Shown here piece by piece: positions 1 to 31,057 of a stretch of 33,326 nt of DNA (position 1 is its first letter; each line of letters opens with the position of its first letter). The notes beneath the pieces are model-generated. The model was given only the letters and a program-made list of their open reading frames with translations. It ran no database searches and had not been told where the DNA came from. The position numbers and the translations under genes are program-made. The DNA is from Atractiella rhizophila (Eukaryota), in assembly GCA_021432655.1 (NCBI GenBank), contig MU271312.1, positions 62,986 to 96,311 on the forward strand, read 5' to 3'.

Positions 1-145
1 GACCTTTGAATACTACTGCCTTTGATACTTAGCACAACCGACACCGTTGAAGAGGTAAGGTTTTTTTCGAAGTAACTAACATCTACTCTCAAATGAAGCC
101 GTTTTTACTTAAGACCAAGGTACAAGGTAGGAAACAAACTAGTGT

Positions 146-1010
146 AGTGTTTGGTCGTCGGGAGTTGGACCTCCATTACTTACATCATGGGTTTCAGACT
201 CACGGTCCTAGACACGGCATTTCGTTTACACCGCGACACTACCGATCTGGTGTTGTGTGGGGTAGTGGATCTGCCACGTAGTCAGATCGCGTAATTGCTT
301 TTTATACCGCTATTTGAATGGCCCCATTGTCTGTAGAGCGTGGAAGGGATTTTTAGTTTCAATTACTTGATTCAGTTCTTACTTTGTTTTTCACTGAATG
401 GCCATAACAGGGTACGAGACCCTTAGCTTCGTCACTACTCCCTTCTATAGGGTATCGTTTCTAGGCATCTCAGGGGACAGGCTTCGGCTTACAGTGCTGA
501 CTAGTGGCCGCATTAACTTCTTTGTCTGGAGGTTCTAACAGCTGTAATCGACATTTAGGTCCAAGAGATACTCCCAACGGTTAGTATTTGTGCCGGCGCT
601 GAAAAACAGGTCGTCGTCTCCATCGGCTCTCAACCAACTCTCGTAAACACCATCGTCGTCGTGGACGTAGTCGTTAAGAGTCCAGAGACGAGGAATACTT
701 CTTCTTTTTGACTGGAACTCTTATCGGGTCGTCTTGCATCTGAACTAGCCCTGTGTTTCTCATAGGCCACAACTAAACTCGCTCCTACAACGCTCAACGG
801 ACTCGTCTTAAAACTAGCTCACGGCGTCCTATATGACACATCATAAGGGATGGTGGTGACTACCGATTCGTCGCACTTGTACTCTGTTCTTTCCACATCT
901 TCTTCCTCCATTTGTTGGTCGCGCTTACAACGCTCTGTACCAGTTCTTAGGGCGTGACCCTGGAACCTAGAGTCAACAGGGAGAGCATAACTAGTAGTGA
1001 TCGAACATTA
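146..1010. other. Cutinase-like (CE5) gene readable only in mirror orientation (+ strand read right-to-left, not complemented); 5' exons unresolved
   Basis: Reversed reading gives MINTRGTTEIQGPSAGFLTMSRNIRA/AISGGREYYTVYPAALDQNSAQATRNILAQINTGYSLCPDQVYVLLGYSQ/GAAATTNALNQLSATSAAGQKVAAVFMIGNPHREPGFTANVDNLG/GDSTDLCYGISSLITASIPRAWDNT/GKVRDVCYP/GDGVCCGLAITAPHLLYGTDPGTQTLGTTFITSRLRAAGL*. GT-AG introns lie at 917-865, 714-664, 528-476, 400-348 and 320-268 (51-53 nt). Stop at 148-146. GYSQG, GDGVC and His motifs match cutinases, and the sequence resembles Cryptococcus cutinase-like enzyme as I recall it. Confidence 0.93.
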
Positions 1011-1326
1011 GTCAAACTTACGGATAGACTCCTTTTTCTTCATGCTGGAGGAGTTTGGCATCTTGAACGAAAATTTTCATCTACTTAGCGGTTCGTGATC
1101 AGGTTCACATGGAGCAGCCATGGTAAGTTAGAGTACAACCTCGCATATTTGCGAGCTTGAAGAAGGGAAAGACCTAGCTACGACTCTCTATGTGGGGAAA
1201 GCTAGATTTGAGACAATCCGACTCAAGACTATATGCCACAGAGTTTAGCGGAGTATTTATTCGTCACGTAGCAAACAGAAATGACGGTTCGGGATGTGTG
1301 GAACCTACAATGCTTATAAAGCTCAT

Positions 1327-8676: not shown

Positions 8677-10322
8677 ATGACCCTCGCTTTACTCTCGCTT
8701 ATCCCCCTTTTGGGACTCGCCTCCGCCGCCGTCGTCCCCTCTGTCGAGGACGGAATCAGGATCCCTCTCACCAAACGCGGCTCTCCCGCCACGAAGCTCA
8801 CTGTCAACGGAGTCTTCAACTCCAACGCTGGCAAGTCTCACCTCGAGCGCGTTGCTGGGTCCGTTCCCTCTCTCTTTACTCCTTCCCATTTTGCTCCCGC
8901 TGACAACCACTTCACATTGATAGAAAATACCAGAGCACCCTCCAGAAGTTCGAGAAGAACACCGGAAAGCCTCACGTCCTCGCTGTTCCCACCAACGGGG
9001 GAATCGTCAAGCGTCAAGCTGAGGCTCTGACCGACGAAGACAGCGAGACGCTCTGGGCGGGAACGATCAGCATCGGTACCCCCGCGCAAAGCTTCCTCAT
9101 CGACTTCGACACCGGATCCTCCGACCTCTGGGTCCCTTCCTCCTCCTGCACCAGCAGCGGTTGCTCCGGACACAAGAAGTACAACCCTAGCTCGTCTTCT
9201 ACCTCTCAGAAGCAGAGCGGAACTTTCGAAGTCGCCTATGGTGACGGCTCCGTCTACGTCTCTGGCAACATCTACACCGATAAGGTACGTGTGCTTTCTT
9301 TTGAGTCGAATTAAAACCTGATGCCCAGTGAAAGGTCACCGTTGGCGGTCTGTCTGCCAGCAACCAATACTTGGGAGCGACCACCGATGAGACCTCCAAC
9401 TTCGCCGACGAAGTCGAGGATGGACTCTTGGGAATGGCCTTCCAGTCTCTTTCCGAAATCGGGCAACCCACTTTCTTCCAGAACGTAGGCTTCTTTTCTA
9501 CCCGTTCTCAGAAATCCACTGACAACCGCCTTTGGCAATAGCTCGTCAGCCAAGGAAAGGTTTCCACTGGATCCTTCGGATTCCGCCTTGCCACGAGCGG
9601 ATCTGAGCTCTACCTTGGTGGAGCTGATACCGCCAAGTACTCTGGATCTATCTCTTACACTCCTCTCACCTCTGCTTCCTACTGGGCCACATCTGGAAGC
9701 GCTCTTGTGTACGTCAACGTCTCTCCTCATTTGATCCATGACTGAAATTTGAGTATAGTAACGGTGCCACTGCGTGAGTTATCTTTCTTCATCTCGTAAT
9801 AACAACAAACCGACATTCTGGTCGAAAGTGTCTCCACCACCATGATCATCGACACCGGAACCACTCTCATCGTCGGAGCCACCGCTACCGTGAAGACTTT
9901 CTGGTCAAAGGTTTCTGGCTCCAAGGCTTGCACTACCGCGACCTGTGGCAGCGGCTCTACTGGATACTACCTCTTCCCTTGGTACGTTGACTGCCCTGTT
10001 CTTGGAATGCTGGCTGATGGTTTTCCTACAGCAACTCTGCTCCTACTGTCTCCTTCTCTTTCTCCGGAAAGGCCTGGGCCATGAGCGCTGATACCTTCAG
10101 TCTCGGTGAGCTTTCTGTCTGCCATTTTACAGTCGAACCCCAGAACTGAACACTGAACATGGAACAGGCCAAGTCTCCTCTGGAAGCTCCTCTTGCGTTG
10201 GCAGCATCGTCGGAGAAGATCTCGGATTGAACGCCTGGATTGTCGGCGACTCCTTCCTGAGGAACGTCTACTCTGTTTACGATTACACTAACGAGCGCGT
10301 CGGATTCGCGACTCCCAAGTAA
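8677..10322 (+). CDS. Secreted pepsin-like aspartic protease (family A1), multi-exon
   Basis: Signal peptide MTLALLSLIPLLGLASA, propeptide RIPLTKR, both catalytic motifs (IDFDTGSSDLWV, IIDTGTT), flap YGDGS, DGLLGMAF, SELYLGG, WIVGDSFLRNVYSVYD; stop TAA 10320-10322. Includes a 15-nt micro-exon at 9759-9773. Confidence 0.95.
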
Positions 10323-10762: not shown

Positions 10763-13023
10763 CTAGTCCTCACCAGGACTAGCTCTGCCCATGTCCTCCC
10801 AACTCCTTGAACTCGAAGTGTGACTAGCCTGACTCGTAGTTTCGAAATCGCTGAGTCCCTCCTTTTCCCAACTCTGCATCTTCTCCATCCCAACTGCTGT
10901 CACATCACCGTCCTTCTTTTCCGCATAGTCCCTCTTCACCTTCTCGTCCAAAGCCGTATTCGCCGTAGGAAGCTTGACAGAATCCGACGATTCCCCAATC
11001 ATCTCGATTGGACGCATAGCCAATTTGTCACTCGACACTTCACTCTCTTCCTTCTCCTGAGTCGGCGTAGCCTCTGGCAGATCGGGATATGTGGGCAAGA
11101 CGTGCTCCTTATCCTCCGGCAACTCCACCTCCTCTCCCTCCCCGACGCTCTTTGGGGCTTCTCTCGCATCACTCGGCATCTTGGGCAGTATTCCTCCGTC
11201 CTCCGCCTTTTCCTCCTTTGGCACAACTTCTTCCTCTGTTCTCTCTTCTGCAGGACTTTGCACCACCTCTCCACCTCCAACAACCGGAGTACTGCATCCT
11301 TTCTCCCCCTCGTCTTTCGAATGATTTCGCTCCGCACTCAAGCTCTCGAACTCTTTACGAAGTGCAATCAACTCCTTCTCAAACCTCCGACCCCACACCT
11401 CCACGTAGAAAGATGCACCGTTCCATACGGCAACAGAGAACATGGAAGCGACGAAAATGGCGTCAGCTGTCTTGTGGTTGAAATAGAGGATTGATGGAGA
11501 GACAGTGAGGATGGTCTATACTCGATATTAGATAATTGTCTGCTAGAAAAAAACATACGAACGTAGATCATTTGGCCAACCATAAATGACAATTCCTTGT
11601 AGGCGCCGGGAATATAAGTAAGCATCTTGCCAATCGTCCCTTTCTTATCATTCAAGAGGCTAATCAACCATCAAGTTAGGATGGTCTGTATCTATGAAGC
11701 CCAGGGGAGGACGAACTAAGTGAACGAGGTGATCCTGCCCTTCGCAATCTTCTCCCTTCTCTTCTCAATCACAAAATACCAATAACCGCCTTGCCAGATG
11801 ATATCTGCAACGTCGCTTCTCAGTTTCTTTCTCTCCTGGAAATGACAGGAGACCAGGACAGACGCACAAACAACGCTAGTAACCGCGAGGAAGCTCTTCC
11901 AGCCTAACCAACCTCCTTTCAAAGCCGGATATCTGGCTTCTGCGAGACCAGGAGGGTAGAAATGTTTGATAGTCATTAGCACCAGTGGTGGGTAGAGGTG
12001 GATGTAGAGACTGGTCACTGTTACGTACTGTGTCAGTAATCGGCGGGATGAGGAAGGCAGAACAAACCTTTATCAATGCTATGAAACACAAGGGAATTCC
12101 TCCACGTCAAGACCGCCGTTGCGAGTGGTCCTGTGGATTTCATCAGTTGGGCGATATGACATAGTATCCGGAAGGTGTACCGTTGGCTAGTCCCCAGACC
12201 GCAGCGAAAAGCAGGGAAGAGGAAGGGAAGACCCAGAGCCAGAGGAGCAGGAGTCCGTTGATGTAATCTGTGGCAACAGTTGGAACATTACGCGGGAGAC
12301 CTCTAAGGGAACGAGCATACAACAGAGGTCGAACACTATAGCGAGTTCAGTTGTCACTGCGAACAAAAGATTTGAAAACACGCACAAAAGTAGTGCCATG
12401 CTTTCTTCTTGTATGTGTACAGTCGCCAGGGAAGGAGGATGAGCGCTTGTATCGTGTAGAAGAGGGGGATGTAGGTCGGGTAGAAGCCTTCGCCCCGTTG
12501 TTGTCAGTGTTTAGAAGTTAACTATCTAGTAGGAGACAAACCGAGGAGAAGCACCGTAGCTACGATCTGTCCACACAAATACGTCATCGGCTGTCTTGGT
12601 TGGCAGAGTGCATGTTGGCAAAGGACGTACGTTATTGACACCGAAGAAGAAGCTGATCTGTTCCCTCAAGCTTACGATCTTGGTCTCGTTCCACTTCAAG
12701 CTGAGCGCCTTCATCCTCTCCTCCACCCTCAACTTCAGTCTCTCAACCTCCCTCTCAGCCTCACCCCAACCTTCTCTCTTCAGCAACTCTTCCAAGGCTC
12801 TCCTCCGCTTTTCCATGCCCCTCTCCACTCTCTTCCCTTGCTGCCTAATTGCACGAGAGAGTAGCTCGATAGTCGCATCGAAGGAAACCAGGAGATCGAC
12901 AAGAGATAAGTCGCTGAATGGCGAGTCGGGAAGGGAGAAAGAACCAGATGGTGAACCATTAGAAGGTGTAACGCTTCCCGAGTGATTTCGGGAGTGCGTC
13001 AAAGACGAAGAAGCGGTAGACAT
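10763..13023 (-). CDS. GPC1: Glycerophosphocholine acyltransferase (DUF2838 family), multi-exon membrane protein
   Basis: VSLREQISFFFGVNN, FDLC, SLYIHLYPPLV..IKHFYP, WNGASFYVEVWGRRFEKEL motifs recognised from Gpc1/DUF2838; acidic low-complexity C-terminus. Confidence 0.85.
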
Positions 13024-14290: not shown

Positions 14291-15267
14291 ATGTCGTCGC
14301 GGAAACCGTATGGTAATGCGACAGACAATATGTTTTACCCCACCTCGAAGAGGGAGAGGGAAGATTTGGCGCAAAATTATGGAGCGCTCCAATACAAGAT
14401 TGATGATCAAAGGCGTTCTTCTCTGTCGAAGAGAACATCGTCAAGATCGAGCTACTTGAAGAAGAATCCGAACTCTCAAGAGCTCTCTTCTTCTTCTTCT
14501 TACACTTCTGAGACCTCATCGTATTCCCCCACCCTTTCTCAGCGATCTTCAAGCTCCTCTAGAGCTTCATCGTATTCTTCCTCTCCCAGTTCAATATCCA
14601 TTACATCTCCCTTGCACTCACCGCCCCAGCGGAAAGTGCAGCGGAGTGAATATAGGTATCAATCGACAAGATCTTCCCCCCTCTCACTTCCGCGAGATTC
14701 ATTTACGTCGCAGAATCCCTCCGTCTCTCCTCCCAATTTCCAAGGTGGAGCCGCAAGTGTATCTGCTCGACGAGCAACACAATCTCGTCCAGTCGGACAT
14801 CGGTACGCGTCGGAGTACTTGGTATCTCCCTCTTCGACTTCGCAACCATTCCAACCAGAGCGTTTCCAACAACCTTTTTCCCGCCATTGGGTATCCATCC
14901 AGCACCACTACCTCACCCGAAACCGAAGGTCTATGCAACGCAGGACACAGGTCGAATGGGGCTGGAAGGTCGGAGGAATGGAAACAATGAAAAGAAATCG
15001 CGAACAGAGAAACGAACACTATTCCGGCCACAAACATTGAACTTCGAGCAACGGGAAAGGAGAGAAACCTCTAAGCCAAATTCAGTGTCAAGGCAGATGA
15101 CGTTGAAGCAGACGAGCGTTTTACAAAACCCACGAAGTGTGCAGAAACTCCATTCTCAGCAAAGACAACAACGCCTTGGTGAATACTGTGATAAGTGTCC
15201 TGATGGACGTCTGCTCAATGGAAACCGAGTCGTCTGCTCCCATTGTGGAAGAACAGTGTATTTGTAA
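14291..15267 (+). CDS. Ser-rich low-complexity protein with C-terminal CxxC...CxxC (putative Zn ribbon); apparent 1-nt frameshift at 14875-14879
   Basis: ORFs 14279-15040 and 14887-15267 become one 325-aa ORF if one T is added to the T5 run. The paralogous copy reads through here (QHALFPPLGV). Ends EYCDKCPDG...CSHCGRTVYL*. Confidence 0.6.
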
Positions 15268-15457
15268 TGTCGATGGCCACTTCGGGATGTGTACTAGGTA
15301 AAGCTTGTAGTTCTGCTGTTGTTTGTACAAGACCTGGTGTTTGAATTGATTGTGCATATTTATCTCACCACTTGACGCAACATTGTGTGGCAGATGCCGA
15401 GCAAAGCACTTTTCAGCTGAGGGGCATTGGATTAATTGCATAGAGAAATGGTAAAAC

Positions 15458-16897
15458 TCACGGAAAGTCACAGGCAAACTCTGGGACATCTGGTAAACCC
15501 CACTCAGCTCCATAGTCGTAAAATCGCAATCCTTGAGACTGTAGAAAGAACCTCAAATCAAGGATAAGTGCAGGCGGTCGATCTGTCGACGGTGTCCAGG
15601 TCATGATAACGGTACGCAGTCTTGGGAATAATCCTCGAGCTCCTATCATCTGCTTCACAACTTGTAAATCTCCTTTATTTTCCCATCTAAAGCCAAGTTC
15701 CTTCACATTCTGGAAGACTGTCTCAAAAGGGAGCTTATCCAACAAATGTCCAGATAAAGCAAGTTTCTTGAAGGGAAGAGCGCGCAAAATGGTCCGAAAA
15801 AACCGGGTCACGAATGCTGATGGACATGGCGTTTGGAGCGAATCGTCTACAATATTAGGTTGAATGCGCAAAGTACGCAATTGAGGACGATCACAAGAAA
15901 GGATACTCTGTTGCAGGGCCATGAAGGTGGATGTGGTATCGCGTCCTTCAAAATTCAGACTCTGCAAATTTGGGCAGCTTCTGATGAGCACCGCGGATGT
16001 CTTAGCCCCCATCCGCTGTATGATGGTCAATTCTTGTATCGTGGGGCACTGAAAATGATGATGAAAATCCGTTATCAACCCATCGTGACGGAAGATGAGG
16101 TTAAGCCGTCGCAAATTTCGATGTAAGGGCAACTCCCGGTATAAATCAAAAGGAATGGGCTCTCGAGGTCCAGAAGAGAGACTAATAGATAGACCCATCA
16201 AAAATATACTGCGAGTTGCCTGGCAAATCGTCGTTTGACCGTGAGTACCGTAGGATTCCAGGCATGGACACCTTTGGATGATAGCTTCCGCTATCGCAAG
16301 CTCGTCGTCCCTGCCATCCACGGTGTAAATGAAGTGGATGTTTTTCACAAAGGCTCCGACGCCATCTCCAGCCGAAATACGTTCGAGAAATATCGACATC
16401 TCGACGCTCCCAAGCAATCGGGGAAACCTGTAAAGCCTCGGGAGGAGAGCTAGGTATAGTCTAGAGTGGCAAAGTACAACGTGTAAAATATCGCGCGCTG
16501 AAATGATAAACTCGCAGATCCACCATAAAATATCATTAGGGAGCTCCTGGAAGTTGACACGAGGGTGATTTACAACATCAGCAGGACGCACAGAGCGTGG
16601 TCGGGATCGAGAGCGAGAGCGAGAGCGTGACCGTGAGCGAGAGCGAGAGCGTGACCGTGAGCGAGAGCGAGAGCGTGACCGTGAGCGAGAGCGAGAGCGT
16701 GACCGTGAGCGAGAGCGGGGTCGAGGAGTAACAGACGCTCGCCAGCGTTCGACTTAATGAGACACAGTAATGTGAGATTGGCCGGTCAGTAAGCGAAGAA
16801 GGAGGAGATGCTCACTTCTCGATCGAATTGCTCTCGGATCACCGTGTGCGATGTTTGACTCGCTTCTCAATCGCAGCTGCTTAGAGTTTCGATCCAT
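15458..16897 (-). CDS. F-box protein with LRR-like C-terminus and N-terminal (RS)19 repeat, copy 1 (~458 aa)
   Basis: F-box motif FQELPNDILWWICEFI...LHVVLCHSRLYLALLPRLYR; LRR-like CPCLE, LRRLNL, CPNLQSLNF, FPRLRTV. A 63-nt intron at 16815-16753 (GTGAGC...TAAG) removes the TAA at 16754. Confidence 0.8.
16611..16717 (+). repeat. Coding minisatellite, 24-bp unit GAGCGAGAGCGAGAGCGTGACCGT x ~4.4, encoding Arg-Ser dipeptides on the - strand
   Basis: Perfect units start at 16611, 16635, 16659 and 16683, with a partial unit at 16707. Confidence 0.95.
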
Positions 16898-17338
16898 TAT
16901 TTTGCTCCGTCCTGGAACTTGCAAGTAAAGCGCAAGGCGTGGAGGACGTAGAGAGAACAAAGGGAGAGCAGCCCCTTGTTCTGCTCGCAACCTCTTGGCC
17001 ACGTGACCGTGCCACTCAATTCCTTTCCTTGACAAAGCTGAAAGGAGGCTTAAGCGCTTCGAAGAGCCACTATACCCTGAGTGTATGGTAAGCAGTGCGA
17101 GGAGAACTCTGTGAGCCCAATTTTTCTGAGTTTCTCTTGCTCCTGTCCCGATAGAGGCTGCCAAGACATAGAATTAATTATGTGAGTGCCATGCATTTGA
17201 TCCATTGTGCCTTTTCACGCTGAAAGATGGCAACGTTATGACGTAGGATATATGTGCTCTCTTTGTTCAATTGATTTGACTTAGAGTAATCTAGAACATT
17301 TTATCCATGACCTATACTAAATGCAAGAGCAGATAAAG

Positions 17339-18589
17339 ATGGATCCTCCTCTGCCGACATCAGGCACATACGTTTCCTCCATCAGAGAGAGCTGTACGCT
17401 GATCAGAGAGAAGTACAATATCAAAGTGAGTGTCGATTGCTTTTCAAGGCACGAGATTACACAAGTCTTGGTAGATTTCGCAAGACGGCGTTTCCAACTT
17501 TCTCACCAATCTGAAAGCTGAAGATTACGAGCGTCTGAAGTCCTCGCATGGACTTGCCTTTCCTCTCAAATTCGAATCTGCAGTCGATGAGCTCAACGTG
17601 ATCTGCCTGCTCTCCATTCTTAACTTTTTGCATGGTTATCGCCTGGAATTGAAAGCGAGGACGGGACGAGGAGCTTGGGACACTATCACCTTCCTCGTTC
17701 TGTCCCTTTACCTCTCGACGGAAAGCTATCCGCCTCTATCTACTTCCCATCTCGCCAGTTTGACGAAGGAGAAACTTGCCGAGTTCATGGGCTTGAAAAC
17801 CCACGTTGAGAAGCAACATGAGACGCTCCCTATTCAGATCGGGGAAGTCGACCAGGATGTGAAGGAAATTGTCGAGCTGGTATACGGAGTCATCAGCGAA
17901 ACAGCCGATATCCTGCAGAAGCAAAAAGAGAAGAGCTTTGGAAGTTGGATGGAGCGTGCTTTAACAGAATCGAAAGCCGACAATGAGAAGTTGCTGAAGC
18001 TTTTGGTTGTCACTTTCCCAGCATTCCGAGATGTCTATGAAATCGATGGCCAACGTGAGAGTCTTTCCCTCATGGTATTTCAATCCTCTTGACTTGATTT
18101 TAAGCTGTATATCTCTTCAAGAAAGCTCTGTTTCTCTTGAATGGCATCTCGCATGTTTTCTCCCTTCCTGGTCGGCCCACGGCACCGTTTCAGCTTCCTG
18201 ATTCGTCTCGCCTTCCTATTTTTGCAGATAATGTTATCCCTAGTAAGTGACCCTTTGCCTGCCCACCTCTGGCACAAACTTGTGACTCTCCAGCGATGTT
18301 GATGCATCACGGCATTTTCTCCTTTGAAGAGGCTACCGAACCATCTGTCCGATCCTTGGGCCTACAGTATACCACGAACTCTTTCCCATCTCCAGATGTG
18401 CCTCCGAGATTGGAGAAGAAGCACGCTGCGATTTTACGGGCTGCCTCGGTTGATGCTTGCTCTGTAATCGCAAAGGCAGGGAACCTGACAGAGGTCGATG
18501 TTGATGCATATCTGTGGGCTGTCGCTAAGGATACGAAAGAATTGAGAGGCGTGACGAGATGGATTGAAAGGGGCACCATTATGTATTGA
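17339..18589 (+). CDS. Divergent queuosine-salvage (DUF2419 / QNG1-like) family protein, copy 1, four exons
   Basis: Motif order ILNF..G, FPAFRD, VYLFKKA, PIFADNVIP..L...GI, ILRAAS, DAYLW, terminal TIMY* parallels the Q_salvage family (FPxFRD, FYKRAQ, FADYxxP, IRxxS, DxxLW, terminal Y). The ATG shared by both copies was used. Confidence 0.72.
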
Positions 18590-18776: not shown

Positions 18777-18777
<1 letters not shown>

Positions 18778-18780
<3 letters not shown>

Positions 18781-19377
18781 TCACCTCAACGAACTTCATT
18801 TACCTCGCAAAATCCCTCCATCTCTCCTTCCAATTCTCAAGGTGGAGCCGCAAGTATATCTGCTGCTCGACGAGCAATTCGATCTCGTCCAGTAAGGAAT
18901 CGGTACAGGTCGGAGCCATTGGTACCTCCCTCTTCAACTTCCCAACCGCAGCGTTTCCAACATGCGTTATTCCCACCGTTGGGTGTATCTCCAGCGCCGC
19001 TGCCTCATCGGAAACCGAATATGTCTACACTGCAGCGCATCGGGCGGGAACAGAACCGAATCCACGAATACCCAGCGCAGGACATAAGTCGATTGGGGGT
19101 GGGTGGTCGGAGGGATGGCAATGAGAAGAAATCGCGCGTAGAGAAGTCAACGCTTTCCCAACCACGAACAATGAAGTTTGAGCAACAGGAAAGGGGAGAA
19201 CTCGCCTCTGCCTCAAGACCAATGATAGTAAAGCAGGGGGGCATTAACCTTTCAGGTTTGCAGAAACTGCGGCCTCGGCAAAGACCACAACTCCCCGTTG
19301 AATATTGTGATACTTGTAATAGTGGATATGTGAACGGAGCATTCTGCTCCGAATGCGCAAGAGCGGTGTATTTGTAG
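18778..19377 (+). pseudogene. 5'-truncated copy 2 of the Ser-rich Zn-ribbon gene
   Basis: Open frame from the poly-A edge (LSPQRTSFTSQNPSISP...) to EYCDTCNSG...CSECARAVYL*. It lacks the first ~130 codons of copy 1 and its start codon. Confidence 0.65.
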
Positions 19378-19579
19378 TAACCGACTTAGCGACAGCTTTG
19401 GGATGTGTAGGAAGTAATGCTTGTAGTTCTACTGTTGTTGTGCAAATCCAAACTGATTGTATAGTTAATCTCTTAACCTTGATGTGACATTGCGTAGTAG
19501 ATGCCGGCCAAGGCAGGTTGAGTGAGGTTCACCTAGAAGAAGGGACACTACAGTTATTTGCATGCAGAAATGGTAAAAT

Positions 19580-20938
19580 TCATGGAAAGTCGCAGGCAAA
19601 TTCAGGGACCCCTGGTAAACCCCACTCCGATCCACAGTCGTAGAAACGCAATCCGCGAGAATGTATAAAAAACATCAGATCAGGAATAAGCACAGATTGT
19701 CCATCTGTCGAGGGTATCCACGTCATGAGAACATTATGAAGGTTTGGGAATAATCCCCGAGTCCCTATCATTTGCTTCACAACTTCTACGTTTCCTTTAG
19801 TCTCCCATAAAAAGCCAAGTTCCTTCACGCTCTGGAAAGTCCCCTCAAAGGGGAGTTTATCCAACAAATGCCCCGGCAAAGCAAGTTTCGTTATAGGAGC
19901 AAGGCTCAAAATGGTCGCAAAGAACCGGGTCACAAATGCTGCTGGACACGGTGCATGAGAATCGTCTACAACATTAAGTTGGATGCGTAAAGCACGCAAT
20001 TGACGTCGATCACAAGCAAGGAGACTCTGTTGCAGCGCGATGAAGGTGAAGGTGGTATCTTCTCCTCGAAAATTCAGACTCTGCAAATTTGGGCAGCTCC
20101 TAATGAGCACCGCGGATGTCTTAGCCCCAATTCGCTGTTTGAGAGTCAATTCTTGTATCGTAGGGCACCGAAAATGATGATGAAAAGCCGTTATCATGCC
20201 GTCATGACGGAACATCAAGCGAAGCCGTCGCAAACTTCGATGTAAAGGTAACTCGCGATATAAGTCAAAAGGAATTGGATCCCAAGTTCTAGGAGTGAGA
20301 CTGATAGATAGACCTATTAAAAGGATTTTGCGAGTTGCTTGGCAAATCGTCGTTTGACCGTGAGTACCATAAAATTCTAGGCATGGACACCACTGGATGA
20401 TAGCTTCCGCTATCGTAAGCTCTTCGTCCTTGCGATCCACAGTGTAAATGAAATGGATGTTTTTCACAAATGCTCCGACGCCATCTCCTACCGAAATACG
20501 CTCGAGAAATATAGACATCTCGACAGTCCCAAACAATCTGGGAAACCTGTAAAGCCGAGGAAGGAGAACCAGGTATAGCCTGGAGTGGCAAAGTAGAATG
20601 TGTAAAACATCCCGCGTTGAAATGATAAACTCGCAGATCCACCATAAAATATCATTAGGGAGCTCCTGGAAGTTGGCACGAGGATGATTTAGAACATCAG
20701 CAGGAAGCACAGAGCGTGGTCGGGATCTAGAGCGAGAGCGTGACCGAGAGCGAGAGCGGGGTCGAGGAGTAACAGACGCTCGCCAGCGTTCGACTTCATA
20801 AGACACAGTAATGTGAGATTGGCCTGTCAATAACGGAAGAAAGAGGAGATGCCCACTTCTGGATCGAATCGCTCTCGGATCACCATGTGTGATGTTTGAC
20901 TCGCTTCTTAATCGCAGCTGCTTGGAGTTTCGATCCAT
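19580..20938 (-). CDS. F-box protein with LRR-like C-terminus and (RS)6 repeat, copy 2 (~431 aa after removing a 63-nt intron)
   Basis: 452-codon ORF; FQELPNDILWWICEFI; collinear with copy 1, including an in-frame intron equivalent (GTGGGC...GAAG). Confidence 0.82.
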   Translation of the reverse strand: MDRNSKQLRLRSESNITHGDPRAIRSRSGHLLFLPLLTGQSHITVSYEVERWRASVTPRPRSRSRSRSRSRSRPRSVLPADVLNHPRANFQELPNDILWWICEFIISTRDVLHILLCHSRLYLVLLPRLYRFPRLFGTVEMSIFLERISVGDGVGAFVKNIHFIYTVDRKDEELTIAEAIIQWCPCLEFYGTHGQTTICQATRKILLIGLSISLTPRTWDPIPFDLYRELPLHRSLRRLRLMFRHDGMITAFHHHFRCPTIQELTLKQRIGAKTSAVLIRSCPNLQSLNFRGEDTTFTFIALQQSLLACDRRQLRALRIQLNVVDDSHAPCPAAFVTRFFATILSLAPITKLALPGHLLDKLPFEGTFQSVKELGFLWETKGNVEVVKQMIGTRGLFPNLHNVLMTWIPSTDGQSVLIPDLMFFIHSRGLRFYDCGSEWGLPGVPEFACDFP

Positions 20939-21354
20939 TATTTTTGCTCCATCCTCAAACTTTCAAGCAAAAGGCAGAGCATGGAAATGGAAAGACGCAC
21001 AGAGAACAAAGGAGAGCTACCTCCTTGTTTCAGGCCCTGGTCACGTGACGTAGCACTGATGACAAAGGCTTAAGTGCCGCTCTACCCTGAGTGTATGACA
21101 AGTAGTGCGAGGAGAACTCTGTGAGTCCAATGTTTCTGTACTTCTCTTGCTCTCGTCTTGTGCGCGTCGATAGAGGTTGCCAAGAGATAGAATTCTTATG
21201 TGAGTGTCGTGCATTTGATCCATTGTGCACTGGCACTGAAAGATGGTAACCCTATGATCTAGGATATACCCTCTCTCTTTGGTCAATTGATTTGACCTGG
21301 ATTAAACCAGAACATTTTATCCATGACCTACACTAAGTGCAAGAGCAGATAAAG

Positions 21355-22604
21355 ATGGATCCTCCTCTGCCGACATCAGGCACATACGTTTCCTCCATCA
21401 GAGAGAGCTGTAAGTTGATAAGAGAGAAATACAATATCAAAGTGAGCGTCAATTTCTTTTCAGGGCACGACATTAAGCTAGTCTTGGTAGATTTCTCAAG
21501 AAGGCGTTTCCAGCTTTCTCACGAATCTAAAAGCTGAAGATTACCAGCGTCTCAAGTCCTCGCATGGACTTGCATTTCCTCTCAAATTCGAATCCGCGGT
21601 TGATGAGCTCAACGTGATCTGCCTGCTCTCCATTCTTAACTTTTTGCATGGGTATCGCCTGGAATTGAAAGCGAGGACGGGACGAGGAGCTTGGGACACT
21701 ATCACATACCTCGTTCTGTCCCTTTACCTCTCGACGGAAAGCTATCAGCCTCTATCCACTGCCCATCTCGCCAGTTTGACGAAGGAGAAACTTGCCGAGT
21801 TCATGGGCTTAAAAACCCACGTTGAGAAGCAACATGAGACGCTCCCTATTCAGATCGGGGAAGTCGACCAGGATGTGAAGGAAATTGTCGAGCTGGTATA
21901 CGGAGTCATCAGCGAAACAGCCGATATCCTGCAGAAGCAAAAAGAGAAGAGCTTTGGAAGTTGGATGGAGCGTGCTTTAACAGAATCGAAAGCCGACAAT
22001 GAGAAGTTGCTGAAGCTTTTGGTTGTCAATTTCCCAGCATTCCGAGATGCCTATGAAATCGATGGCCAACGTGAGAGTCTTTCCCTCATGGTATTGCAAT
22101 CCTCTTGACTTGATTTTAAGCTGTATATCTCTTCAAGAAAGCTCTGTTTCTCTTGAATGGCATCTCGCACGTTTTCTCACTTCCAGGTCGACCCACGGCA
22201 CCGTTTCAGCTTCCTGATTCGTCACCCCTTCCTATTTTTGCAGACAATGTTATCCCTAGTAAGTGACTGCTTGCTCCTCAACCTCTTGCACAAACTCACG
22301 CTCTCCAGCGATGTTGATGCATCACAGCATTTTCTCCTTCGAAGAGGCCACCGAACCATCTGTCCGATCCTTGGGTCTGCAGTATACCACGAGCTCTTTC
22401 CCATCTCCAGATGTGCCACCGAGATTGGAGAAGAAGCACGCTGCAATTTTACGGGCTGCCTCGGTTGATGCTTGCTCTGTAATCGCAAAGGCAGGGAACC
22501 TGACAGAGGTCGATGTTGATGCATATCTGTGGGCTGTCGCTAAGGATACGAAAGAATTGAGAGGCGTGACGAGATGGATTGAAAGGGGCACCATTATGTA
22601 TTGA
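21355..22604 (+). CDS. Divergent queuosine-salvage (DUF2419 / QNG1-like) family protein, copy 2
   Basis: Near-identical protein and the same intron positions as copy 1. Confidence 0.72.
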
Positions 22605-26673: not shown

Positions 26674-26739
26674 GACCGACGTCCCTCTCATCGCTCATAC
26701 CACTAGTTAACTAGCAACTGTGGTTATTAGGCGTACAGC

Positions 26740-28456
26740 ATGCTCTCACTCCTCCTCCCCCTTCTCACGCCCTCGCTCGCCTCTCCCACTCCGCCAACCC
26801 AACTCCCTCTCTCCCTCTCCGGCACCTCCCACGCAACCCTCCACGCCCTCGGCCACTCTCCTGCCTCCATCCTCTCTTCCCCGGACCTCCTCCACTCCCT
26901 CGCGTCCGATCCGGCCATCGACGTTGTCGACCTCCACGACTTCCTCTTCCCCGAGCAGGCCCATCTCCTCCAGGAGAGCAGGAGGCTCAGGGTGTTGGGT
27001 GCGCCGTTGGACGAGGTCTGGGATGCGACGGAGGGCGAGAAGTGGAGGCTGAACAGGGCTGGAGTCAAGGTGGCCGATGTTACGGGGTTCGAGGGCCTCA
27101 AGTTTAACGGGGCCAGTGCTGGAGATGAGGGTATCTGTCTCCTTTCACCGTCAAATCATAACCAAAATGAGGAGGAGTGCAGGACCAGAACTCCCTCCCA
27201 TCAAGCACGCTTATCAAGTCAGAGGGACGATCGCTACACTCAAGAAGGACAACTTGAACAGCACCCTCACAACTCTCACGTCATTCCACAACCGATACTT
27301 TAACGCTGAGACCGGAAAGCAGAGTGCCCTCTGGATCTACCACCACGTCCTCGACGTTTGTCCCCTCCTCCCTCTTCCTCCAACCCCAAAGCTCTCAACT
27401 CTAACAAGCTGAACAATAGATCGCCTCCCGCGCACCGTACGGCACACCGCTCAGCATTCAGCTCTTCAACCATCCCTTCCGGCAACCCTCAGTCATCGCC
27501 CGCTTCGAAGCCCCCAAAACCCTTCCCTCCACCCAGGACACGGTGGTGATTGGAGCGCACCAGGACAGCATGAACTATCTCTTCCCTCTCCTCCCTGCCC
27601 CGGGTGCGGACGACGACGGATCTGGGACGGTCTCCATCTTGGAGGCTTTCAGGGCGCTCGCAGAGGGTGGGTTCACGCCCGAGAAACCGGTCGAGTTTCA
27701 TTGGTGCGTTTTTCTTCTTTTGCTGTTTGTTTTGAGAAATATTGATGGAATGTGTGGTGTGGGCATAGGTATGCGGCTGAAGAAGGAGGTCTCTTGGGTA
27801 GCAGAGAGATTGTGAAATCCTTCGTCGAAGCCAACCGGTCCATCGCAGGCATGCTCCAATTCGTAAGTCGCCGCATACTCTCTATTTCTTCTGCCTATAA
27901 ATATCTATTTCAACCTTTCGTTACTGATGCTTCGAAACAGGATATGACCGCCTATGTCGGAGCGAACAAGGATTACACGCCAGCAGTAACGCTCATCACG
28001 TCCGATGCCACCAAGGGATTGACAGAGTGGACGATGGAGTTGGCGAGAAGGTATTGCGCTTTGGATGTCCAGGGTGCTATCTTGCCGTACGTTATCGTCC
28101 CTCTCTTTCGAATCCTCATAGTCTGACCGGCTCCTCTTTCCTATCTGTTCGGATATAGACCTGGAGCAGGAAGTGACCACATGTCATGGTACGCAGCAGG
28201 ATACCCAGCCGCCTTCGCATCTGAGGTTCGTTCCTTCCCTCTCCTCCCTCTTCGTCAGCACATTTTGACACTCGCCATGAATTGATGGGAACAGGGAGAT
28301 CCGAACGTTGAAGACGCTTTCGATCCCTACGTCCACACCGTCGACGACAGAATGGACCTTCCTGGAAAGGTTTTCTCCTTCGACCATGCCCTCGAGTTCT
28401 CAAAGCTCGCTGTGGCTTTCGCTATTGAACTGGGGGGCTGGACGCCTTGGAGGTGA
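26740..28456 (+). CDS. Secreted leucine aminopeptidase, peptidase family M28, copy 1
   Basis: Signal peptide; [61 protein letters not shown] (Zn ligands and catalytic Glu present); ends ELGGWTPWR*. Confidence 0.95.
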
Positions 28457-29172
28457 GAGGAGGTGGCTCCTTCCACCAACCGAGTGTAGACAGAACATCT
28501 GGTTTCTAGTTAATGTATGTCAGCTGGTCATTTGCGACAACTGACATGGTCAGTAATCCTAACATGATGGCTCCGTGTTCGTAACGTTCACGTGTTCTGA
28601 TCTAAGAGCACTGGCTAGCTGTCAGTGGACAAATTCCGGCGTCGTTCTACAAGGTCCCTTGAGCTCAACCAACTACGACAGCAAAAGTGAACGGGCAATT
28701 GCGCAACATGTCGTGCTCTCCCTCATGAACTGTGACGGAGAGGTAGTATTCAAATTGGGAGAAACAGAGTGCTATTACAATTTTACCTGATTGATGCATT
28801 TGTCAGGTTGTCGTTTCCTCCCTGACAAACCGCCTTCGCAATTCAGCAATTCACGCCGTCCAGTTCGATGTCAGCCGAATCTAGCGGAGTGACGCCTTGG
28901 TGGATGAAGATGAAGCTTTGGTGGGGGACGGTTTAGTTGAAAGCTCAAAGTTTGGCGGAGGGTCCCGCTAGTTCCCCTCCTTCTCCATCCTACCTTCGGC
29001 CCGCTCGAGTTCGAACCAGGCTTCAAACCTTCGTTAATCCAAGAGCTGCTCTTTAGACCAAGCAGTGGATAGACCCACTTCCTCGACTACCTGTCCCGCC
29101 AGCACCACCCACTCCGCCGTGCCCTTCAGTATTGTGACTCTGCCTTCCCCCGTACCGACAAACATCTGGACG

Positions 29173-29179: not shown

Positions 29180-29227
29180 GGTCCACCCATTCACTCGCCT
29201 TCAGCCCCATAGTGTTGTTTTTACAGG

Positions 29228-30941
29228 ATGCTATCCCTCCTACTGCCCTTGCTCGCCTCATCCCTTGCCTCTCCGACTCCACCTGCACAACTCCCCCTCT
29301 CCCTCGACGGCATTTCTCACGCCTCCCTCCAGTCCCTAGGTATATCTCCCTCACTCGTATTCTCCTCGCCGGAGCTCCTCCACACCCTCGCATCGAATCC
29401 AGCGATAGACCCCGTCGACTTGCACGACTTCCTCTTCCCCGAGCGCGCACACGTCTTGCGAGAGAGCAGGAGGCTCAGGGTGTTGGGTGCACCGTTGGAC
29501 GAGGTCTGGGATGCGACTGAGGGAGACAAGTTGAGATTGCGCAGGGCTGGGTGAAAGTGGCGGATGTGACGGGGTACGAGGGATTGAGGTTTCATCGCGA
29601 TGGAGAAGATGGTATTTTGTCTTTCTTGTCACTTCTGGATATTGATGAGACCACTGGCGTTGATTGGCTTTTGGACCAGAGCCGGAACTCCCTCCCATCA
29701 AACATGCCTATCAAGTCAGGGGAACTATCGCCACGCTCAAGAAGGAGAATCTGAATAGCACCCTCGCAACCCTTACGTCCTTCCACAACCGATACTTTAA
29801 CGCGGAAACCGGAAAGCAAAGCGCCTTCTGGATCTACCACCATGTCCTCCAGGTCTGTCTCTCCATCTTCCTCTTCCTCCAACTCCGATATCTTCTAATG
29901 CTGAAAGTCTGGGGAAGATCGCCTCGCGCGCACCGTACGGCACGCCGCTCAGTGTCAGTCTATTCAACCACGGTTTCCGTCAACCATCCGTCATAGCACG
30001 TTTCGAAGCCCACAGTCGCTGCCTTCCACCCAGGAGACGGTTGTGATTGGAGCGCATCAAGACAGTATGAACTACCTCTTTCCTCTGCTCCCCGCCCCGG
30101 GAGCGGACGATGACGGATCGGGGACGGTGTCCATCCTTGAGGCTTTTAGAGCTCTTGCCGACGGTGGATTCACGCCTGAGAAGCCAGTCGAATTTCATTG
30201 GTTAGTCTGTGTTTCCGCGTTTCTGGCCTCCTGGTTGGGAAAGACAGATGAATTCAATTTGACGTGACGTCCTGAACAGGTATGCGGGGGAGGAAGGAGG
30301 GCTTTTGGGTAGTCGAGAGGTAGTCAAGTCCTTCGTGGAGGCGAATCGGTCCATTGCTGGTATGCTACAATTCGTGCGTCTGTGAATCCATAACCTCTGC
30401 TTCTGCATAACCTCGTTCTCGGTAGGACATGACCGCTTACGTTGGAGCGAACAAAGATTATACCCCGGCAGTAACCCTCATCACGTCGGATGCGACAAAG
30501 GGTCTCACCGATTGGACGATGGAGTTGGCGAAGAGGTATTGCTCCTTGGATGTCCAGGCTGCCGTGTTGCCGTGCGTCCTTTCTTTCTCGCTCGGATTCA
30601 CGTTCGAGACGTCGTGACTTGATTTCTTGTTTCTACTGGGAAAATAGGCCCAACTCGGGAAGCGACCACATGTCATGGTATGCAGCAGGGTATCCGGCCG
30701 CGTTCGCGTCAGAAGTTCGTCTCTCTTCCCTCCCAACCAGCTGATTCGAAAACGGATCTTCTGATCATAACGTGAACAGGGAGATCCAAACGTCAAAGAT
30801 GCCTTCGACCCCTATATACACACTGTCAACGACCGCATGGACCTGCCCGGAAAGGTCTTTTCCCTCGATCACGCACTCGAGTTCTCCAAACTGGCAGTAG
30901 CCTTTGCGATCGAACTTGGAGGTTGGACGCCATGGAGATGA
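29228..30941 (+). CDS. Leucine aminopeptidase M28, copy 2, with two apparent 1-nt frameshifts (sequencing errors or very recent pseudogene)
   Basis: Same exon structure and all catalytic motifs as copy 1. A G is missing at 29549-29551 (GCTGGGTGA vs AGV in copy 1) and a C is missing at 30009-30011. Confidence 0.85.
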
Positions 30942-31057
30942 GGCATGGTCCGTAGGTATTCCGCTGTAATAAATATTTTCTGCAACAGGGTGATTGGGAG
31001 CTTTGAGCATGAGGTCTCATTGGGCGCACTGATGTAAGGTACCTCGTCTGAGCAATC

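Follow-up and report, generated by a model that had tools for sequence, protein, structure and literature searches.

A cutinase-family gene end in reversed, uncomplemented letter order at the left end of an Atractiella rhizophila sequence

The window (the whole 33,326-nucleotide stretch of Atractiella rhizophila DNA that was analysed) opens with a mirrored block at 1-1046, which as written belongs to neither strand and is delimited by contig ends from public sequencing runs together with a 4-mer mirror score. Four public sequencing runs match 1-2640 (X1 to X4, of which X1 and X2 share one sample), and their contigs were aligned to this part of the window; no RNA run is among the runs listed as matching 1-2640, and X1 and X2 contain 0.45 of its sampled words. 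To the right of the block is an ordinary, un-mirrored spacer (1047-1281) between two convergent genes, covered by an X1 contig that lies on 1047-1956; this is followed by a minus-strand gene at 1282-2640, for which no Pfam family was found. The outline of this neighbouring gene is taken from the other two runs: an X4 contig breaks off at 1282 in a T run that would be the poly(A) of a minus-strand message, and X3 contigs skip 1631-1678 and 2216-2268, segments taken from their CT..AC ends to be introns of a minus-strand gene. The gene in the block, once restored to the plus strand, and the minus-strand gene at 1282-2640 converge; the junction 1046|1047 lies in the intergenic spacer between them.

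The rest of the window is normal in content, with DAO, ribosomal S16, aspartyl protease and two M28 peptidase exons. For the aspartyl-protease exon (9054-9311), the best match is a protein recorded as 'acid protease [Atractiella rhizophila]', at 99% identity, with the next matches at 80% or less. A tandem duplication with a unit of ~4.0-4.1 kb occupies 14680-18585 and 18777-22600, the copies being 80-97% identical; its large open reading frames are paired (15458-16753 with 19580-20962, and 17475-18092 with 21491-22108) and display no clear family, and no relative of the frame at 15458-16753 was found among 8000 scored candidate proteins. Another tandem duplication, with a unit of ~2.49 kb and copies 78-85% identical, lies at 26734-28457 and 29222-30942, each copy containing one M28 peptidase gene. 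Between 1927 and 2506, X1 and X2 feature paired short unitigs with 0 versus 9-13 differences and roughly split depth; this would be the pattern expected of a heterozygous dikaryon or diploid.

As given, the left end of the window is poor in coding potential and unusual in composition. The first-pass annotation had described 1-1320 as a block lacking any credible open reading frame in six frames and looking rich in TAC/TAG/CTA. The longest open frame in 1-1320 is 76 codons; in none of the six as-given frames of at least 40 aa does a Pfam family reach E<=0.1, the lowest value being 0.11; and the TA/AT counts are 91/67 in 1-1320 versus 1216/1857 in the remaining window. The asymmetry was quantified with a mirror score, in which each 4-mer contributes the log ratio of its frequency to that of the reversed 4-mer, f(kmer)/f(reversed kmer); these frequencies are strand-symmetric and come from the remainder of the window. 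The score of 1-1046 is -61.4; across 157 stretches of equal size elsewhere it has a mean of +55.6, a standard deviation of 20.9 and a minimum of -5.9, with 1 of the 157 at or below 0. The k-mer statistics of 1-1046 are those of reversed DNA, and the asymmetry is limited to the left end; by this score no further convincing mirror block was found in the rest of the window. A local dip at 12200-12600 (-18.6 for 12301-12600) was considered as a second mirror block and rejected, as its mirrored frames are random-looking and the as-given sequence is ordinary; it is probably a compositional fluctuation.

When the letters of the block are reversed without being complemented, a spliced gene is readable. 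In this orientation there is an open stretch of 155 codons, and cutinase-like peptides occur in three frames; candidate introns with GT..AG ends and lengths of 48-59 nt were listed, and removal of five of these gives a single open frame that continues to a stop at 148-146. All coordinates of the gene are read from right to left. The block begins with what is probably the 3′ tail of an upstream intron (999-1046), pyrimidine-rich and ending in AG, with its acceptor at 999 or about 1027. Exon a (918-998, coding from 996 or 998 to 918) encodes INTRGTTE, corresponding to the oxyanion-hole region of cutinases, and is followed by a 53-nt intron (865-917) with GT..AG ends and the donor GTTGTT; exon b (715-864) ends with GYSQ and the first base of the Gly codon of the nucleophile motif GYSQG, and is separated by a 51-nt GT..AG intron (664-714, donor GTCAGT) from exon c (529-663), which contains IGNP and is aligned to the profile of natural cutinases. 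A 53-nt GT..AG intron with the donor GTCTGT (476-528) precedes exon d (401-475), and the 53-nt GTAAGT..AG intron at 348-400 precedes the short exon e (321-347), which encodes DVCYP. The final intron (268-320) is again 53 nt with GTAAGT..AG ends and features a branch-like site, CTGAT; the last exon (146-267) encodes GDGVC and APH, which hold the candidate catalytic Asp and His, and ends with the stop at 148-146. The remaining 145 nt (1-145) are a 3′ untranslated or downstream stretch, of which base 1 abuts 1047 in the true genome.

This structure reproduces what had been reported from the letters, namely six in-frame exons, five GT..AG introns of 53, 51, 53, 53 and 53 nt and a stop at 148-146; the peptide landmarks were likewise recovered in place, with INTRGT at 993-976, GYSQ|G at 727-662, and IGNP, DVCYP|GDGVC and APH where they had been located. 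Counted from the M at 996-994, the spliced product has 195 residues. Within the block, neither a start codon nor a signal peptide was found upstream of that M, and the block opens inside an intron; the 5′ part of the gene therefore lies to the left of the window. Of the hidden cutinase gene that had been proposed, the 3′ part (195 residues) stands and its completeness does not, since the 5′ exon or exons are outside the window. The many introns of 51-53 nt, taken with the allele-like unitig pairs, would fit a Pucciniomycotina fungus.

The assignment of the mirrored product to the cutinase family (CE5, PF01083) was approached through natural members of the family. A tblastn search with the lysin B of phage D29 led to a 'cutinase family protein' on a Rhodococcus plasmid, which contains PF01083 at 55.7 bits; the matches listed for its N-terminal 271 residues provided 120 proteins, all with a precomputed PF01083 domain. 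A profile of these 120 proteins matches the spliced mirrored product at E 3.9e-8 (29.4 bits), where the profile represents one divergent actinobacterial subfamily, the confident alignment is confined to residues 44-112 and the Asp region contributes 2 bits. The database for this search held 1762 open reading frames, comprising the as-given and the mirrored six-frame frames of the whole window; the sole other match below E 0.01 is an unspliced mirrored frame, and the profile matches none of the as-given frames of the block. Among 2000 shuffles of the mirrored product the best score is 8.4 bits, versus 29.4 for the product itself. By blastp, 116 of the 120 cutinase-family proteins match the mirrored product at E<=1, compared with 0 of 120 acid proteases. 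The Rhodococcus protein alone aligns with the mirrored product over 163 residues at E 5e-6 (in a two-sequence database), and the alignment runs through Y.YPA, CP, GYSQGA, G.P.R.PG and C.PGD..C. A profile built from 20 of the same proteins gives 20-42 bits for fungal cutinases and acetyl xylan esterases of solved structure, the same range; the mirrored product therefore shows the divergence that a fungal CE5 enzyme would be expected to have.

GYSQG is given as the cutinase motif holding the catalytic Ser in the accessible part of PMC6091245; in the mirrored product it forms residues 73-77, is split by the 51-nt intron and aligns with the GYSQGA of natural members. The same part of PMC6091245 prints a second motif for the Asp and His, C-x(3)-D-x(2)-C-x(2)-[GS]-[GSD]-x(4)-[AP]-H, which it terms 'less precise'. 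A relaxed form of this motif is found as a 17-residue element at residue 153, with C-x3-D-x2-C and A-P-H; relative to the pattern as printed in that part of PMC6091245 the element is one residue shorter and has L at the [GS] position, so that the exact pattern is unmatched. Judged from its residues, the spliced mirrored product appears to be a cutinase-family (CE5) member, new but of an ordinary kind within this known family; the first-pass annotation had named it a CE5 cutinase-like gene, and the local profile of PF01083 proteins (E 3.9e-8) with its shuffled controls bears this out. No cutinase paralogue was found in the as-given window, where tblastn with the mirrored product gives a best E of 2.2.

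The search for relatives by way of the phage also produced observations on other genomes. In the D29 record, lysin B is the only protein in which PF01083 was found (26.8 bits). Relatives of lysin B were found at 2 loci, one of them a contig in a shotgun assembly of Paraburkholderia bengalensis that is identical to D29: NZ_JACFYJ010000065.1, at 48,475 bases about the size of a phage genome, has a lysin B gene with 100% identity to the mycobacteriophage D29 gene, so the contig looks like contamination of that assembly. Of 401 genomes of the phylum of Paraburkholderia, 36 have a PF01083 match at E<=0.001, with 11 over the 25.9-bit cut-off; these loci were considered as a source of natural cutinases and set aside, their matches being marginal ones at the nucleophile elbow and the best tblastn E with the mirrored product being 0.009.

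The contigs of X1 and X2 place the border of the block and indicate what was done to it. A 1250-letter contig of X1 aligns to 1047-1956 over 910 letters with 7 differences, and its other 340 letters diverge from the window; X1 and X2 each have one contig with an unaligned end of at least 255 letters to the left of 1047. The 30 printed letters of this unaligned end repeat window 1-30 exactly in reverse order, and neither strand of the window contains this 30-mer; the true genome therefore joins base 1 to base 1047. When block ends from 1040 to 1052 were tried, 1046 alone yielded the 30-mer of X1 and X2; with the identity of the 30-mer, this sole fit means that the reversal was made in place and from base 1 of the window. 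No contig of X1 to X4 aligns to 1-1046 as written. The block had been drawn previously as 1-1320 with a border at ~1300; the contigs move the right border to 1046 and leave 1047-1320 as ordinary DNA, and the earlier border fell too far to the right because the cumulative mirror score hardly changes from about 1000 to 1320. The contig-level proof spans window 1-30, and the order of 31-1046 is taken from the continuity of the gene (146-998) and from the k-mer score. X1 and X2 may differ from the source isolate of the window, given that 7 of 910 letters differ and that the unitig pairs resemble alleles.

From these results, window 1-1046 is considered to be genuine fungal DNA whose letter order was reversed, in place and uncomplemented, either by software or manually (probability roughly 0.96). 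The reversed block is a data-handling artefact and not biology, and as written nothing in it functions. If restored, the block would carry on the plus strand an intron tail, six exons with five introns of 51-53 nt, a stop, and a trailer of 145 nt that joins 1047; the product is predicted to be the C-terminal 195 residues of a serine esterase in the CE5 cutinase family. Its putative catalytic triad would consist of the nucleophile of GYSQG, the Asp in GDGVC and the His in APH, and the start codon, any signal peptide and the 5′ exon or exons that contain them are predicted to lie to the left of the window start.

How the letters came to be reversed is approached through the position of the block, which starts at base 1 and must therefore relate to where either the record or the window begins. 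An edit or decoy introduced after assembly, on the record or on the window, is marginally favoured, at slightly better than even odds. The public contig of the locus (96,311 bases) is longer than the window, from which a slight lean towards such a post-assembly edit follows; genome segments that are 'reverse but not complementary' are made deliberately as controls in the pipeline described in the accessible part of the RRE preprint, after Dfam practice. A reversal already present in the deposited assembly is a real if tentative possibility, in which a bug in leftward contig extension or gap filling would have prepended bases in the order in which they were walked, and which may recur at other contig starts. 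The layout that such a bug predicts, with the true neighbour of 1047 at base 1, is the one observed; the sequence opens with the block, and the odd window length of 33326 may point to a record end as boundary. However, a near-identical acid protease gene lies on the 96,311-base contig, and the window start may therefore be internal to a longer record; the window displays no second mirror block, and among the papers listed by a literature search on reverse-only errors none deals with assembly errors or describes such an extension bug.

Other accounts of the block itself fare far worse. It had been left open whether the operation was reversal or complementation, and the two give the same mirror reading of the gene and are indistinguishable from the block alone. 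If the block had been complemented and left unreversed, the gene would be on the minus strand with its promoter beside 1047, and the complement of window 1017-1046 would precede 1047; the predicted 30-mer differs from the unaligned end of X1 and X2. Of the two operations proposed, reversal is thus the one that matches the contig letters exactly; complementing without reversal does not match them, and it is held to be extremely improbable.

An ordinary inversion, a normal minus-strand gene that was misread, or a chance resemblance where there is no gene can together be given scarcely any weight. The as-given frames of the block reach at most 76 codons and have no family match; none of them is among the matches of the cutinase profile, the tblastn search of the as-given window stops at E 2.2, and chance as modelled by shuffling attains at most 8.4 bits against 29.4.

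A mirror-order segment physically present in the source isolate, with the gene written backwards by some unknown process or a synthetic insert, is the least probable account of all: its sole opening is that X1 and X2, with their few differences, may not be the source isolate, and against it stand the un-mirrored order of the same-organism contigs at the junction, the antiparallel nature of copying, which allows no such product, and the mirror reading itself, in which splicing at canonical intron ends gives an intact frame, something highly implausible for a sequence that evolved as written. To our knowledge, as template copying is antiparallel, no event of replication, repair, inversion or transposition gives a reverse without a complement; with the normal order seen in the organism's contigs, this makes the change a string operation. 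The first-pass annotation had likewise favoured an in-silico reversal and judged physical existence very unlikely, and the un-mirrored order beside 1047 in X1 and X2 supports that judgement.

With the reversal in place by a string operation as the preferred reading, the restored block is an ordinary basidiomycete cutinase gene among ordinary genes, and it holds no biological novelty. The consequences are for records and annotation. If the reversal is in the public record, a CE5 esterase, a candidate polyester or cutin hydrolase, is lost from the annotation of the species and from its CAZyme counts; if a systematic extension bug is the true origin, genes would be hidden at many contig starts. 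If the block is a deliberate decoy, the analysis demonstrates that such a block can be detected and delimited to the base. The k-mer mirror score flagged the block cleanly and could be used to screen assemblies.

The closest known enzymes are the fungal CE5 cutinases, with solved structures from Fusarium, Aspergillus, Humicola and Trichoderma. The mirrored product has GYSQG in common with them, and also a Cys-x3-Asp-x2-Cys ... Ala-Pro-His element with the candidates for the other two residues of the triad; the core of ~200 residues is alike, and the mirrored product is significantly similar to natural PF01083 proteins. In contrast to those enzymes, the window contains no more than the C-terminal 195 residues, the second motif departs from the printed pattern in its shorter spacing and its L, and the protein is known here from its sequence; the source is also different, being an Atractiellomycete (a Pucciniomycotina basidiomycete) that associates with roots, rather than a classical ascomycete pathogen.

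Public records contain orientation errors, such as reverse-complemented entries. These resemble the block in being data-handling errors that mislead annotation; however, a reverse-complemented entry is valid DNA and is found by a two-strand search, whereas tools that read six frames or two strands miss a block that is only reversed. The reverse-only decoys of the RRE and Dfam type, as presented in the accessible part of the RRE preprint, serve as null models in sequence searching and are made by the same operation, which keeps base composition and length while real signals are lost to standard tools; such decoys are kept in separate, labelled files, whereas the present record has 1046 reversed bases running seamlessly into forward sequence.
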